64,000 nucleotides of DNA from Candidatus Poribacteria bacterium (GTDB lineage Bacteria > Poribacteria > WGA-4E > WGA-3G), in assembly GCA_964291315.2 (NCBI GenBank), contig OZ219753.1, positions 512,001 to 576,000 on the forward strand, read 5' to 3'. Positions 5,944-43,006 of the stretch are shown here, piece after piece (the stretch's first letter is position 1; each line of letters starts with the position of its first letter). Both the position numbers and the translations under genes were made by a program. The notes under the pieces are model-generated. The model saw only the letters and a program-made list of their open reading frames with translations. It searched no databases and had not been told where the DNA came from.

Positions 5944-6056
5944 TTAAACGTCTTGGGAAGAGATCTGTCAAGTGACCTTACAAATGTGCTGACAGTTGCG
6001 GACGCAGTTTTTAGTGAGAAGTGGGTCACTTGTAAGTATAGGCGCTGAGTAAGTCT

Positions 6057-6132
<76 letters not shown>

Positions 6133-6162
6133 TAAAAAAAAAGAATGGGCTATTTAACACAA

Positions 6163-6236
<74 letters not shown>

Positions 6237-6256
6237 CTTTTCATAACTCAAAACGT

Positions 6257-6329
6257 GGTGGATGTAGCTCAGGGGTAGAGCACTTGACTGTGGATCAAGT
6301 GGTCGTGGGTTCAAATCCCATCATCCACC
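6257..6329 (+). tRNA. tRNA-His(GTG)
   Basis: G-1 plus GTGGATG/CATCCAC acceptor, anticodon arm CTTGA-CT GTG GA-TCAAG. Confidence 0.97.
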
Positions 6330-6364
6330 CTCATTCATATCTCGGGGCCGGCTGTGCGGCAGAA

Positions 6365-6497
6365 CGCCCGGTTGAATACGGGGACATCAGAAAGCAGTAA
6401 GTGTCCATTCCGTTCACTGCGAATCATTGGTGGGATATTCCGAGAACAAGCAAACGCCACGGTTAGAACAAGAGACGTGGATCTGTCCCAACGGGCG
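6365..6497 (+). ncRNA. Candidate structured RNA between tRNA-His and tRNA-Lys
   Basis: Nested helices CGCCCG/CGGGCG, GGACAT/GTGTCC, TGGGATA/TGTCCCA and CCACG/CGTGG. No family recognised. Confidence 0.3.
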
Positions 6498-6513
6498 AGA
6501 ATACCAACCAGGT

Positions 6514-6586
6514 GCGCCGTTAGCTCAATTGGCAGAGCATCTGACTCTTAATCAGGCGGTTGAAGGTTCGATTCCTTCACGGCGCA
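6514..6586 (+). tRNA. tRNA-Lys(CTT)
   Basis: Acceptor GCGCCGT/ACGGCGC, anticodon arm TCTGA-CT CTT AA-TCAGG. Confidence 0.97.
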
Positions 6587-6608
6587 TCGCTTCTAATATA
6601 GAACGTTC

Positions 6609-6693
6609 GGGCGGGTGCTGGAATTGGTAGACAGGATAGACTTAGGATCTATTGGGGTTACGCCTCGTGAGGGTTCAAGTCCCTCCTCGCCCA
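6609..6693 (+). tRNA. tRNA-Leu(TAG)
   Basis: Acceptor GGGCGGG/CTCGCCC, anticodon arm ATAGA-CT TAG GA-TCTAT, long variable arm. Typical position upstream of tig. Confidence 0.96.
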
Positions 6694-37521: not shown

Positions 37522-39036
37522 TTAATCGCTAAACAGATCATGTTTTAGAAAAATATCTCCATCAAAATCTGCGACCTGATGCTGCAGCTGACGTTTCGCC
37601 GCTAGTGTGCCAATAACTGGAACATCAAAAGAGATAGATTGTTGGATACCGCTGCGGTTGTACACCGCCCAACCTTTTTCAAACTCACGGACGAAGAGTC
37701 CCGGAGTTCCTTGATACTTAACGGCTTTCTTTGCTATCGGTCGACCGAGGTCTATATCCCAGAATTCGTACCAGTTGTGCAAATGGTCGGAGGTTGGTAT
37801 AACGTTGTCATCACTAAAAAGCACGTACCCATCAGAATGTGTTAAGCTGAGCGTGGTAAACGTCCGCATCCACTGTCGGTTCTCTTCGCTATTTCGCTCC
37901 GCAACCCGTGTATTGAGATCCCCCATATAATTTGTTACAACGCGCCAACCCTCTAGACAATTGATTCTCGGCTCTCTCAGGTGTTGTTCCGCCCATAGCA
38001 GTGTCCTTTCGATTCGTAGCATCTGTTCAAGGCTGTATCCGCTATCGTAGTCTGGTTTATAACACTCCATGAAAATACCGTTCACATGCTGCGCTGACTT
38101 CGGAATCTGACGCATATTCGCGTTGACGAGAATTAGAAAGTTCTCCGTCACTGCTGCCCGTATTTTGCGTAAAATCGCCAACCTGGCTTCTAACTCGACT
38201 TCCCGTGTGAGAATTGTATCAGACCAATCATCAACACGGATTGGACTAGTTGCATAGTCCTCGTTCCACCAATCAAGCATGATCCCGTCAAAAAGCCCAG
38301 ATTTGTCTAATGCTACTGCTTGCTTGACTATCAAATTCTGCACTTCTGGGTTTGTGAAGTTTATGAGGTAGTTGAGAACTGTGTCGTTCTCGTCGATTTT
38401 CCCATTCCCGTTTGTGTCTTCACCCCAACCGATGACAGGTTTACCGTGGCTATCTTTCAACCAATAAGGTGAATCCGGCGGATAAAACCCGACCTCCCAC
38501 CAGTTTCCCACACTCGTTTCACTTTGACGCGACAAATACCTTGCATCCCGGTACCGAATTTCGACGAGCAACAAAAGATTCGGATTTAAGGATAAGAGCT
38601 CGGATTTTCTATGATGCGCTGTATCTAACCGACTCGGCTGCAAATCTGACGCTAATCCTGAATAAGGCTGCTCCTCTGATATATTCCAAGGGATGCTTAA
38701 CAACGTGTACGGATCCGCAAAAACGAGATTGTGCCGAACCATTTTTTTGACCTCGCTTTCATCCGGTCTATTTTCTATACCGCTCCACGCCTGAAAGATT
38801 GAAGGATAATTTCGCTGCACGTTTTCAGCACCTGCCACTAGCTCTCCTAAAATGAGAAGAGCAATAAGATGAGATAAAGCTAGTAAAAAAACACGCTGAA
38901 TACCGATAGCCAGACTGAAATTTGAGTTGCAGGATCTCATAGAAGTTAAATTCTCAATCAGTTTTGAAAACGTCATAATTCTCTCGCTATCCGTTTCTTT
39001 TCTCACTGAATCACAGGCACCGGTTATTGATTCCAC
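37522..39036 (-). CDS. Secreted putative glycoside hydrolase (GHL15-like TIM barrel)
   Basis: FDGIMLDWW, NGIFME, SLTHSDGY, WDIDLGRP, FVREFEKGWAVYN; EF-hand-like DTNGNGKIDEND. True start probably downstream of 39036. Confidence 0.6.
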   Translation of the reverse strand: MESITGACDSVRKETDSERIMTFSKLIENLTSMRSCNSNFSLAIGIQRVFLLALSHLIALLILGELVAGAENVQRNYPSIFQAWSGIENRPDESEVKKMVRHNLVFADPYTLLSIPWNISEEQPYSGLASDLQPSRLDTAHHRKSELLSLNPNLLLLVEIRYRDARYLSRQSETSVGNWWEVGFYPPDSPYWLKDSHGKPVIGWGEDTNGNGKIDENDTVLNYLINFTNPEVQNLIVKQAVALDKSGLFDGIMLDWWNEDYATSPIRVDDWSDTILTREVELEARLAILRKIRAAVTENFLILVNANMRQIPKSAQHVNGIFMECYKPDYDSGYSLEQMLRIERTLLWAEQHLREPRINCLEGWRVVTNYMGDLNTRVAERNSEENRQWMRTFTTLSLTHSDGYVLFSDDNVIPTSDHLHNWYEFWDIDLGRPIAKKAVKYQGTPGLFVREFEKGWAVYNRSGIQQSISFDVPVIGTLAAKRQLQHQVADFDGDIFLKHDLFSD

Positions 39037-41260
39037 CAGTACGTTAATTTCCCAACAACAGTCCAGCTGAGAAGTTCTAAACCATTGCTTCGGGTATCGT
39101 AGCTTTGATCGAAAACGAGATAGAAATCGCTGCCCGGACGGTAAATGTAATTGAGCAGGAAGCTCGTAGAGAGCACGTCTCTATTAGTACTCCACTGCGC
39201 GAATAATTTCGCGAAAAGTGTCGTGAAGAAAGAATAGCCGACACGCCCTCCCAAAGCATTCGCGTCGAATTCCTGATTCGGAAGCGTGATGCGATTAAAT
39301 TCGATGAAAGGTTCAAGACTCAACTGAGCTGTCGGTCTGGCGATGACATCTATTAAGAAACCGCGCCGCTGCCCGCTATAAAACTCACCAAACCCCACTT
39401 GCAACTGTCCAGTAATCATGCGACTGCTGCTAGTCTGACCCGATACCTGAAATGATGTGAAATTGTAGTCGTCAACAGGAATACTAACGCTTTGGATCCA
39501 AAAGTCCCGACCAAGATTTTCTGTCGTATTTTTGATCTCAAAACTGATGTTATCTCCTGTCTTAAACTCAAATTGCAGGTCGAAGGTTATCTCCTGCGTT
39601 TCCAGCTCGTTTTCCTGTGTCAGCACAAGGTCTATTTCTGGTCCGATTTGAATTTCGCGAATGCCAAACTTATCTGGCCACGGAGTGTAACCGGCACCGC
39701 CGCGCAAGCGGCGGACATCTTTACGTTCTACATAACCGACTTCAGGATTAAAGTCTTCACCGATGTCCGTGTATGAAGCATCGAGTCGGAACAGGTTTGT
39801 TCGCCAATCACCGCCGATAAAGAAGGCGTTATTATTGCCAAGAATATCTGCTTCAAAGGTCCGTGACCACAACCCTTGGATATTAATTTTGCGCGTCGGA
39901 CGGTATGAAAAGTCAACCCCCACCGTGCGATTGTAAACATCCACATCTTGTTTGTTGATAAGAATGCCGCCAACGGTCGATCCTGTGAGTATATCTCTAT
40001 TCACACGCATCACTGAATAATTTGTACGAGGTTCGTCAACGCGCGGCTCACCTATCTGAAATTCGTCATCCCTAATATTGTTCGTTAATACGTTCAGAAT
40101 CCCAATACCGTAGGAACCGACTTTACCCGTCATTTTCCCGCCTGCAATAATAGGAATCGCCATGCCTTTTGCAAGCCCAATCCTACGGCTATAAAAAAGA
40201 AGTAAGGGTGGTGGACTATCAAAATTCGGACGTGGAGCTCCAACATCGAAGATACTTGCACCTTCTAAGAAAAACGGACGCTGCTCCGGAAAAAACAGAC
40301 TGAACCGGGTAAGGTTTACCTGTTCTTGGTCCGCTTCTACCTGTGCAAAGTCCGTGTTAAACGTCAAATCAGCAGTTAAATTCGGGGTTACTCCATACTT
40401 GAGATCCAAGCCTGCCTCCAGTACACGCTCAACGCCCTCTGCCGACGAGCCGCTGCTTGCCCCCGGTAGGATATAAGGCAGCAGCTCCAGATGTCTTGAT
40501 GGTGAAATACCTTCTATCCCTTCAAGCGTACCGAAATAAGCAGTGCGATACTTTCCCAAGCCACCGTAAGTCTTCGGGGCTTCGTTCCACGCGGCAATTT
40601 CTTGTTTTCTCGCGATTTCACGTCCGAAATTTACGCCCCAGCTCATGACATCGCTTTTTTCAAAACGGAGTTGACTAAACGGAATAGCAATCTCGGCTGT
40701 CCAATACGCTTCATTCATCCTACAGCGGCACTCCCAAACGATATCCCAGCTTCCGTTGCGGCTGTCCCCACTCTTGGAGACCGCAGTGTCTTCTATCCGC
40801 CAACAGGAGTGAAGCGAAAGAAAACAGCATTTCGACGATCGTTATAAGTATCTAACAATAGAAAACCATAGTCATTAGAGCGCAAACCCGGAGAATCCCG
40901 ACGCATGTCATTCGCAACAATCTTGTCCATCTCTGAATCAAAAAAAGTGAATCCGAAATACAGTTTTTTGTCATCATAGAGAATACGGATTTCGGAAGAT
41001 TCTGTTGCAGGTTCGCCTTGATCAGGTTGGATTTGGTATAACTGACGAATCGGTTCTACGCTTTGCCAAACAGGCTCGTCAAGCACACCGTCAATCTCAA
41101 CCGCCTCAGATATCCGGTGTGCTGACATGCGTGGGAACGCACGTTCAGCTTCCACATCAACCTCCTGTAAAACGGATAAACCGCACATCCAGAGTAATGC
41201 AAAAAAAGCAAGATTCCGCACATACAACGAATGCTGAAAGTTAGTTGTGAAAAATCTCAT
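39024..41260 (-). pseudogene. CBM9-like + DUF5916 outer-membrane protein, split by a 1-nt frameshift at ~40795
   Basis: Upstream ORF has IDGVLDEPVW...YDDKKLYFG; downstream ORF has WTAEIAIPF, NTDFAQVEAD, FFPEQRPFFLEG, LFYSRRIG. The intervening EDTAVSKSGDSRNGSWDIVW lies in the downstream frame. Confidence 0.8.
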
Positions 41261-41565: not shown

Positions 41566-42900
41566 TTATTCAAGCGAGAGTTCTACCTCAATCTGTTTTC
41601 CATTTCGGAGAAGTCTTACGGGTAAAGTCTTTGCTTGTGGAACATCTTGTAGTACATAAGCGATAATCCCGCTCTCGGTTAACCGATCGGTGCGATCACC
41701 GTAACCAACCACAATATCGGCCCGACGGATGCCTGCCCTTTGGGCATTCGTCTCTCTACCTGAACGGCGCGACCGCCGGCCGACTGTCTCAACGCTCAGA
41801 GCCATTTCGGTCTCACCTAAACCTTTGCGTTGACGCTCGGCATCAGATAGGTCCTGAAGTACCATCCCGCCAAGCGCCACAAGCCGCAACTCACCAGTCG
41901 TTGTACGCCAAGAGATGTCACTTCCCCTCCGCCAACCCGAATGGAGAGTCAGACCCAGATTTATTTCTTCACCGTGACGATCGACTTTTGCTAGTACTGT
42001 CGTGTTTTCCGGGGCACGATGTAACACCCACTGCACATCCGCAACTGAAATAATCGGCTGCCCATCAAGCGTGAGAATTTCGTCTGCGCGACGAAATCCA
42101 TCTTTCTCCGCAGAAGATCCAGATACAACTTTGGTGATTTTCGCGCGATGCTTTGGTGAGAAATACAATCCTAAAACATCTGGCATCGGAAATGGATATA
42201 GCACTTCGTCTGGAACGGATTTCCTGTCATACCAGTGGATCTCCCGCTGCGCCTCTCCGATTTGATGGCAGTGGATGCACTGCCGGTCAATTTCACTGCT
42301 AAAGTCCAAAGTCGCGGAATAGCGCAGCAACGTCGGAAACGCCTCCGGCGTTTTCTTTGCCGGCTCAGGTCCAGTTTTTGCACCTAAAGATGCCTTGTTT
42401 TTCGGATATTCTTTGTGCAAGGCAAGAACGGCTTCAAGCGCCTGTTTGAAACCTTCAATCGAAATATCTTTCGCGGCGTTCTCATATTCAGCGCGCGTGC
42501 CAAAACGCCCATAGAGGGTCTTATCGGCATTCATGAAAAACACCGCGAAGGTGAGATCATAATCGAATTGGAACAGCGATAGATCCATACCGTTGCCTTG
42601 CACTATACGGACGCGCACAAACTGATCCATGAGCTCTTTTATCTGTTTATCGTGACGAACAACCTGTTCATCGAAGCCCTGGCACGACTCTCACGGCACT
42701 CACCGAAAAACGATGAGTAAAGGTTGACCTGTTTTTTCCGCTACACCAATCCCTTTAGCGAGGTCATTGTAGATCCAGTAGCCGGTCGCCGCAACTGATT
42801 CTATGTCTTCTGCAACCTCCCTGTCACCGTGTCCAAAACAGAAAAATACAGATAACAATAGGATACTAAGGATTATACCGGACATCTGATACTTCATCAA
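41566..42900 (-). CDS. Thioredoxin-like/CxxCH/PDZ selenoprotein with two UGA codons (UxxUxxC), ~444 aa
   Basis: ORFs 42900..42700 and 42630..41566 share a frame and join as LLIVFR-TGA-VP-TGA-ESCQGFDEQVVRHDKQIKELMDQF. SECIS-like hairpin follows; CIHCH motif; PDZ-like regions. Confidence 0.85.
42650..42687 (-). promoter_or_regulatory. Candidate bacterial SECIS element
   Basis: GAUGAAC-AGGUU-GUUCGUC hairpin (7 bp, G-containing apical loop), extendable by UCGU/ACGA. Loop is ~25 nt after UGA2 and ~34 nt after UGA1. Confidence 0.6.
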
Positions 42901-43006
42901 AATATGCTCCTTTCATTTTTTTTTTTTTTGATTTTTTGGGCAATAACGATACGCCGGGTCAGACGTAGTGTAAACCCAACTCATTTTGAAAATTGTTCCG
43001 CGCAAA

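Follow-up and report, generated by a model that had tools for sequence, protein, structure and literature searches.

Can a bacterial gene carry two selenocysteine (Sec) codons only three residues apart and, if so, how would both of them be decoded? The question is raised by a gene on the minus strand of a stretch of 64,000 nucleotides from Candidatus Poribacteria bacterium (assembly GCA_964291315.2, contig OZ219753.1, positions 512,001 to 576,000), hereafter referred to as the window, in whose numbering all positions are given. A 66-codon open reading frame (ORF; 42900..42700) and a 354-codon ORF (42630..41566) lie here in one frame, and an original prediction, made from the DNA letters alone, had joined them into a single gene interrupted by two TGA codons only. 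The read-through frame indeed holds exactly two internal stops, TGA at 42702-42700 and TGA at 42693-42691; its product has 444 residues, ends at the TAA at 41568-41566 and reads locally ...LLIVFR-U-VP-U-ESC-QGFDEQV... Based on the comparative evidence presented here, it is very likely that this is a real gene for a double-Sec oxidoreductase, in which both cysteines of the thioredoxin (Trx) motif C-x-P-C are encoded by UGA and are followed by one SelB-type Sec insertion sequence (SECIS) and an accessory hairpin. The elements on which the argument turns are the following.

41566..42900, minus strand: whole gene, 444 codons plus TAA, start at TTG 42900 or ATG 42897 (read-through frame and full-length match to family model NF041199)
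42700..42702, minus strand: UGA1, predicted Sec67, first position of the Trx C-x-P-C motif (frame, homologue alignment)
42691..42693, minus strand: UGA2, predicted Sec70, second motif position and the Sec position of the published one-Sec form (frame, alignment, reviews)
42682..42684, minus strand: UGC, Cys73, third motif Cys, inside the loop of the accessory hairpin (alignment, folding)
42674..42690, minus strand: accessory ('mini') hairpin, 5 bp and a 7-nt loop (-3.4 kcal/mol; family-wide statistics)
42654..42672, minus strand: main SECIS-type hairpin, 8 bp, loop GGU at 42664-42662 (folding, conservation)

UGA codons at the cysteine positions of a thioredoxin motif

The gene product matches the NCBIfam equivalog NF041199, 'Trx7/PDZ domain-containing (seleno)protein', with 389.1 bits against a cut-off of 300, from residue 41 to 442 and over positions 1-389 of the 390 in the profile; the earlier statement that the family has selenoprotein members was thus correct. 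Fourteen Cys homologues of full length (45-49% identity) share the motif R-C-[IV]-P-C-[ED]-x-C, close to the R-C-I-P-C-E-x-C that had been given for them, with C67, C70 and C73 invariant, and the two UGAs align with C67 and C70, as anticipated. These three columns are likewise invariant Cys in a 78-row alignment. Among 41 related genomes, all 12 matches that cover the motif (35-83% identity) carry exactly two TGAs at the same codons, which is more than chance would produce. Ten open frames with the pattern TGA-N6-TGA occur in the genome, and only the Trx7/PDZ gene looks coding.

The genome, which is 95% complete and in 4 contigs, also contains the Sec machinery on which such a reading depends: selA, a selB gene that directly adjoins the gene for tRNA-Sec (selC), and selD, which carries one in-frame TGA of its own. 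We infer that selenium is inserted at both UGAs by SelA, SelB, SelD and tRNA-Sec. It has been proposed for other genomes with a UXXU motif (U for Sec, C for Cys) that such codons may instead be read as Cys, since genes resembling tRNA-ReC are enriched in them, according to the accessible part of PMC13582414 (2026). A SECIS-dependent tRNA like tRNA-ReC could accordingly insert Cys at one or both UGAs of the present gene, or UGA1 could mostly terminate translation. ARAGORN and the Rfam tRNA-Sec model, applied to the 95%-complete genome, detected one tRNA-Sec, which is the only tRNA with a UCA anticodon, and one ordinary 75-nt tRNA-Cys, and neither a second UCA-anticodon tRNA nor an odd tRNA-Cys; this argues against a route from UGA to Cys. 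Moreover, the first motif position has switched between Cys and UGA about 27 times in the family (see below), a pattern not easily understood if UGA were simply a costly way to encode Cys. A non-Sec reading of either codon is therefore very improbable.

The genome looks rich in selenoproteins in general. One in-frame TGA is present in six of its 13 AhpC/TSA-family matches, of which two are adjacent, and in one further Thioredoxin_7 match. TGA-bearing loci outside the window are found at C4:2301999-2302817, C4:1108602, C4:2253622, C1:471388, C1:367055 and C1:527564 (genome G000), and most of the TGA-bearing AhpC/TSA and Thioredoxin_7 genes have a hairpin 16-24 nt downstream of the TGA.

Three states of one family

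The Trx7/PDZ family itself is known, as a family with one Sec. It is listed as CxxU in two reviews (PMC13188914, 2026; PMC9312934, 2022), which in their accessible parts give UxxU for other families only, and the Global Ocean Sampling study cited by both (PMC2398784, 2008) has, in the part available, a CxxU entry named 'putative secreted serine protease MucD'. The one-Sec members of NF041199 have the same domain order, the same position of the redox motif, the same C-x-H-C-H motif (CxHCH) and the same SECIS hairpin as the gene described here; compared with the CxxU form given in the accessible literature, the first Cys is here a Sec codon as well, and an extra hairpin stands before the SECIS. 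We found no published description of a UxxU form of Trx7/PDZ or of the accessory hairpin; members with two Sec could figure in supplements or in the NCBIfam entry. UxxU motifs of other families (a peroxiredoxin-like thiol:disulfide oxidoreductase, the metal-binding NF041115 and FmdB, in the accessible parts of the reviews) also have two Sec with two residues between them at a site of the CxxC type, and differ in fold context and family.

The original prediction had implied that a protein with two Sec would be a rarity, and this is not the case. A survey of 176 genomes of Poribacteria gave 54 matches over the cut-off, 46 with two TGAs, five with one and three with none. In a sample of 401 Planctomycetota genomes, 118 contain a match over the cut-off, and among the 149 rows in the list of matches roughly half are of the UxxU form (about 73 with two TGAs, about 44 with one and about 32 with none, by hand count). 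Wherever a two-TGA sequence was fetched, both TGAs are at the same two codons. UxxU is thus the commonest state of the NF041199 family in the genomes surveyed, and this widespread two-Sec state is under-annotated and, as far as we searched, not catalogued. The family reaches widespread phyla (Poribacteria, Planctomycetota and Verrucomicrobiota). In some Planctomycetota genomes two gene copies with two TGAs each are adjacent (G482:C9:126526-129073; G406:C242:15269-17875), and CxxC, CxxU and UxxU paralogues stand side by side in several genomes (e.g. G050-G052, G377).

For comparison of the three states, 225 unique 63-nt windows were pooled from the fetched loci: 106 of the UxxU type, 56 of the CxxU type, 63 CxxC and no UxxC. 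The Planctomycetota part consists of the first 30 rows and 98 of the remaining rows with one or two TGAs, to which two further one-TGA rows were added. A FastTree tree was computed from 219 members, after six rows with a stop or with fewer than 330 residues had been left out. On this tree the three states require 30 changes when unordered and 31 when ordered, which indicates that the changes are stepwise. The second motif position switched 4 times and the first 27 times. Another residue takes the place of the third motif Cys in 9 UxxU, 4 CxxU and 0/63 CxxC windows, which suggests, from the sequences, that this Cys may be dispensable once Sec is present. The replacements in these 13 Sec-containing members are A, S, F, N or G, and all 13 keep CxHCH (loci L191, L213, L216, L218-L220, L227-L229, L252, L258, L267 and L273).

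A SECIS-type hairpin, an accessory hairpin and the decoding of two UGAs

The main hairpin (42672-42654) has 8 bp and a GGU loop that begins 35 nt downstream of UGA1 and 26 nt downstream of UGA2. That a hairpin with a G-containing loop lies near both codons had been noted before; it is now seen to be conserved and to stand at a workable distance from both. At least 7 of its 8 pairs are kept in the same register in 41 of 42 unique Sec-form windows, against 0 of 52 Cys-form windows; in the larger pooled set the same threshold is reached by 89/106 UxxU and 35/56 CxxU windows, and by 0/63 CxxC windows. The UxxU and CxxU windows that miss this register mostly form hairpins with a 4-5-nt loop in another one, and all 106 UxxU windows fold a hairpin at the main site, with GU in the loop and a G within its first two positions. 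Three of the pairs show compensatory changes, and the covariation (0.197, against 0.150 in shuffled alignments) was reached in 0 of 500 shuffles. A stem-loop with an early G in the apical loop is typical of the E. coli fdhF type and of the bacterial SECIS (bSECIS) consensus, and the main hairpin is of this kind as well as covarying. It is the only RNA element shared with the one-Sec (CxxU) relatives. Its distances from the UGAs (26 and 35 nt) exceed those in six more genes of the genome that may encode selenoproteins (selD and five of the AhpC/TSA type), in which the loop of the minimum free energy (MFE) hairpin starts 16-24 nt after the UGA; in two further candidate selenoprotein genes folding revealed no clear hairpin after the UGA.

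A second, shorter hairpin of 4-7 bp forms in the 18 nt that separate UGA2 from the SECIS. In the present gene it spans 42690-42674 (-3.4 kcal/mol), starts 9 nt after UGA1 and directly after UGA2, and has the Cys73 codon in its loop. An MFE of -3 kcal/mol or lower is found in 97/106 UxxU windows, against 15/56 CxxU and 12/63 CxxC windows, with median values of -5.3, -1.4 and -1.2 kcal/mol, respectively. When each window was compared with 200 resamplings of synonymous codons, the median z was -2.06 for UxxU, +0.08 for CxxU and -0.28 for CxxC, and 45/106, 1/56 and 2/63 windows, respectively, were among the most stable 5% of their resamplings. Codon choice thus favours the short hairpin only in UxxU genes. 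Its stems vary between lineages while the pairing is kept (GGACU/AGUCC, GGAUU/AAUCC, CGACU/AGUCG, GCCU/AGGC). In a fixed register, 61% of the UxxU cells are paired, against 50% after shuffling, and the covariation of 0.253 (0.150 shuffled) was reached in 0 of 500 shuffles; the CxxU values are 42.5% against 39%, and 0.146 against 0.126, which 78 of 500 shuffles reached. Among 14 well-supported independent pairs on the tree, the hairpin went with the UxxU state in 9.0, with the opposite state in 1.3, and did not differ in 3.7 (median p 0.02). The short hairpin is therefore specific to the two-Sec form and tracks the UGA state of the first position. This sets the family apart from the UXXU group 4 [NiFeSe] hydrogenases, for which the accessible part of PMC13582414 reports no change of SECIS architecture between CXXU and UXXU.

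Several points weigh against this picture of the gene and its RNA. The Rfam scan of 42560-42760 gave no family match and only a chance match to a small RNA (E 2.1), and no RNA run was found to contain the gene. Two public assemblies, both of the same study, show the letters of the window unchanged over 42560-42900, and either may be its source, so they do not count as independent. The pooled windows are not a random sample, one search pattern having favoured Cys forms, and the tree is from FastTree only. Over random pairings, the p value of the independent-pairs test spans 0.002-0.73. The short hairpin also occurs outside UxxU, with 15/56 CxxU and 12/63 CxxC windows at or below -3 kcal/mol, and nine of 106 UxxU windows are without it. 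With one fixed register only 61% of the UxxU cells are matched; since loop size and register differ among members, such a register describes the family only in part, and the energy test made on each sequence is thus the better measure. The reference distances of 16-24 nt, finally, come from unverified MFE folds.

How could two UGAs 9 nt apart be served? SelB is believed to require, for each UGA, a hairpin at a set distance. The distance of 26 nt from UGA2 is near the range of 16-24 nt, whereas the 35 nt from UGA1 lie outside it unless the path is shortened, so that a helper would be needed. The short hairpin begins 9-12 nt after UGA1 across the family, and 9-12 nt after a UGA in the A site is about where the mRNA leaves the ribosome. 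In the mechanism that we favour, the short hairpin would stay folded just outside the mRNA channel with the ribosome on UGA1, and its approximately 17 nt, once folded, would leave about 20 nt in place of 35 nt up to the SECIS loop. By the time the ribosome has advanced three codons it would have melted the short hairpin, and the same SECIS could serve UGA2 at its normal 26 nt. GU is present in only 14/97 short-hairpin loops, against 106/106 main loops, and the short hairpin is therefore probably not a SelB-binding SECIS. We tentatively propose, as a possibility to which we give somewhat less than an even chance, that this hairpin without a SelB-type loop has evolved as a 'distance adapter' by which one SECIS recodes two UGAs 9 nt apart. 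It may come and go with the first UGA, at the position that switched about 27 times in the family.

The same hairpin can be read as the first of two tandem SECIS elements, SelB-binding and serving UGA1, with the 8-bp hairpin left to serve UGA2 only, so that two pre-loaded SelB complexes would await the ribosome. The distances are consistent with this: the short-hairpin loop starts 16 nt after UGA1 in 66/97 windows and 14 nt after it in this window, within or just under the range of 16-24 nt, and the hairpin of the selD gene in this genome is similar (17 nt, 5 bp, AGG loop). Pre-loading would also remove the kinetic difficulty that SelB has to be recruited two times over a span of three codons, and 88/97 short hairpins have a G in the first two loop positions. 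This early G, however, belongs to the Cys73 codon UGC and is equally present in CxxU genes without the hairpin, and the scarcity of GU, together with the free variation of the loop sequence, suggests that it is the stem that matters. A pair of tandem SECIS elements is on balance rather unlikely. That both UGAs are decoded by one SECIS, a possibility raised by the original prediction, may be right, but UxxU genes also carry the second, UxxU-specific hairpin, which that prediction had not noted. For the UXXU group 4 [NiFeSe] hydrogenases, too, the accessible part of PMC13582414 raises as an open question whether one SECIS serves both UGAs.

The Trx7/PDZ family is in this respect a natural experiment, with hundreds of genes in three states, many independent switches of the first position and an RNA element that tracks them. 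Should the distance adapter be real and recur in further families of the UxxU type, Sec recoding in bacteria would have a general rule in it, and the engineering of multi-Sec proteins a design principle.

The protein, its possible chemistry and its annotation

The signal-like N-terminus, the WIYNDL segment, the CIHCH motif (residues 208-212, 42279-42265) and the PDZ-like regions that had been read from the sequence are all present, and CxHCH and two PDZ domains proved to be hallmarks of the family. The remaining features of the gene are as follows.

42907..42913, minus strand: AAAGGAG, probably a Shine-Dalgarno-like site, 6-9 nt 5' of the start codons (read from the sequence)
42826..42900, minus strand: N-terminal signal-like segment, residues 1-25, with a hydrophobic core (sequence; helix 2-20 of the model, with low confidence)
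42406..42777, minus strand: thioredoxin-fold domain, residues about 42-165 (PF13899, E 2e-14; model; fold matches)
42265..42279, minus strand: C-I-H-C-H, residues 208-212, possible heme c or metal site (family-wide CxHCH, at the N-terminal end of helix 211-224)
41926..42174, minus strand: PDZ domain 1, residues about 243-325 (Pfam, fold and profile searches)
41569..41883, minus strand: PDZ domain 2, residues about 340-444 (model, fold and profile searches)

Pfam places Thioredoxin_7 (PF13899) at residues 42-125 (E 2e-14) and PDZ families, PDZ_2 among them, at 243-318. Inspection of residues 1-25 revealed no twin-arginine motif and no typical lipobox. An AlphaFold2 model built from a 78-row alignment (mean predicted local distance difference test score, pLDDT, 89.6; predicted template modelling score 0.86) puts residues 67 and 70 between strand 61-65 and helix 71-81, i.e. 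at the canonical place of CxxC in Trx, with lower confidence around residues 61-80 (83 and 73); a linker follows in which C-I-H-C-H opens helix 211-224, and then two PDZ domains. The N-terminal half resembles DsbH-like and other Trx-fold chains (Z 8-9.8). Foldseek with the whole model is dominated by DegP/DegQ PDZ pairs, and the CxHCH linker (residues 170-240) is barely covered by the fold searches. The tandem PDZ1-PDZ2 module is like that of the periplasmic proteases HtrA, DegP and DegQ (Foldseek E 5e-10; profile matches E 1e-14), and the best structural matches of PDZ2 are the PDZ domains of DegQ (Z 11.6) and MamP (Z 11.3). Whereas HtrA, DegP and DegQ have a protease domain of their own, the gene product lacks it and has a Trx fold as its N-terminal half: no trypsin-like protease domain (Ser-His-Asp triad) is among its Pfam matches, and the DegP-type NCBIfam models match the PDZ part only, far under their cut-offs. 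Judged from its sequence, the gene product is a predicted exported member of the Trx7/PDZ (seleno)protein family, composed of a signal segment, a Trx fold, a CxHCH linker and two PDZ domains.

If both Sec are inserted, the oxidised enzyme would carry a Sec67-Sec70 diselenide, or a selenenylsulfide with Cys73. Eukaryotic SelL is reportedly a UxxU selenoprotein with a diselenide, and in SelL-like UxxU proteins the two Sec are at the CxxC positions of a Trx fold, as the Pfam alignment and the structure model indicate for residues 67 and 70 here. The choice of protein or peptide substrates for a periplasmic selenol/thiol oxidoreductase probably lies with the PDZ pair. CxHCH, a possible heme motif of the CxxCH type, is found in 218/219 family members, and the genome has three Cytochrom_C_asm matches over the cut-off, so that motif and heme attachment genes are both present; no Pfam cytochrome family matches the gene product, and the fold searches barely covered this region. 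A covalent heme or a metal site at the CxHCH of the Sec-pair protein is thus plausible. Against a cycling diselenide it must be said that a diselenide is hard to reduce and that a metal- or heme-linked role is equally possible. Sec67, Sec70 and Cys73 might in that case ligate a metal or the CxHCH heme, and the protein would then handle metals or metalloids or carry electrons, and not reduce disulfides. The near-invariant CxHCH and the cytochrome c assembly genes are consistent with this alternative, as are the MamP match (PDZ and minimal heme; Z 11.3), the dip in model confidence around residues 61-80 and the UxxU entries for metal-binding selenoproteins in the accessible parts of the reviews. 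Residues 67 and 70, however, occupy the canonical CxxC place of Trx, Cys73 is dispensable in 13 Sec forms, and the match to MamP concerns its PDZ domain and not its heme part; we regard the metal-ligand role as a minority possibility. A periplasmic Trx fold with a possible diselenide, an invariant CxHCH and two PDZ domains would constitute an uncharacterised kind of redox enzyme.

Public databases have so far presented such genes in another form. In a set of 5.8 billion proteins, the best 100 matches are ORFs of at most 383 residues (most of 350-375) with a query coverage of 84% or less, and are thus cut at the UGAs; deposited close relatives are named 'peptidase' or 'serine protease Do', labels which, given the lack of a protease domain, are misnomers. 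Taken at face value, these entries would mean a PDZ 'peptidase' of 350-354 residues that starts after the UGAs, with an unrelated or decayed ORF upstream, and it is true that only truncated close relatives are held in the public sets. Yet the upstream 66 codons, conserved in frame throughout the relatives, encode the signal segment and the first strand and helix of the Trx fold; the truncated ORF would miss half a domain, no protease domain was found, and the SECIS hairpin tracks the UGA. We therefore consider the deposited annotation almost certainly wrong. The majority form in the surveyed genomes is the two-Sec form, deposited as truncated 'peptidase' ORFs and catalogued as one-Sec.

The neighbouring genes (chorismate-lyase-like, CBM9/DUF5916, TPR proteins, DctM) give no functional hint. 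A run of 14 A (42916-42929, minus strand) immediately precedes the putative ribosome-binding site of the gene. On the minus strand at 39024-41260, a CBM9-like ORF (40793..41260) and a DUF5916 ORF (39024..40718) are arranged head to tail in different frames with 75 nt between them, and may be one gene with a frameshift or an assembly error, or two genes. Five tRNA genes (Pro, Arg, His, Lys and Leu) are clustered at about 6056-6693 of the window (G000:C4:518056-518693).

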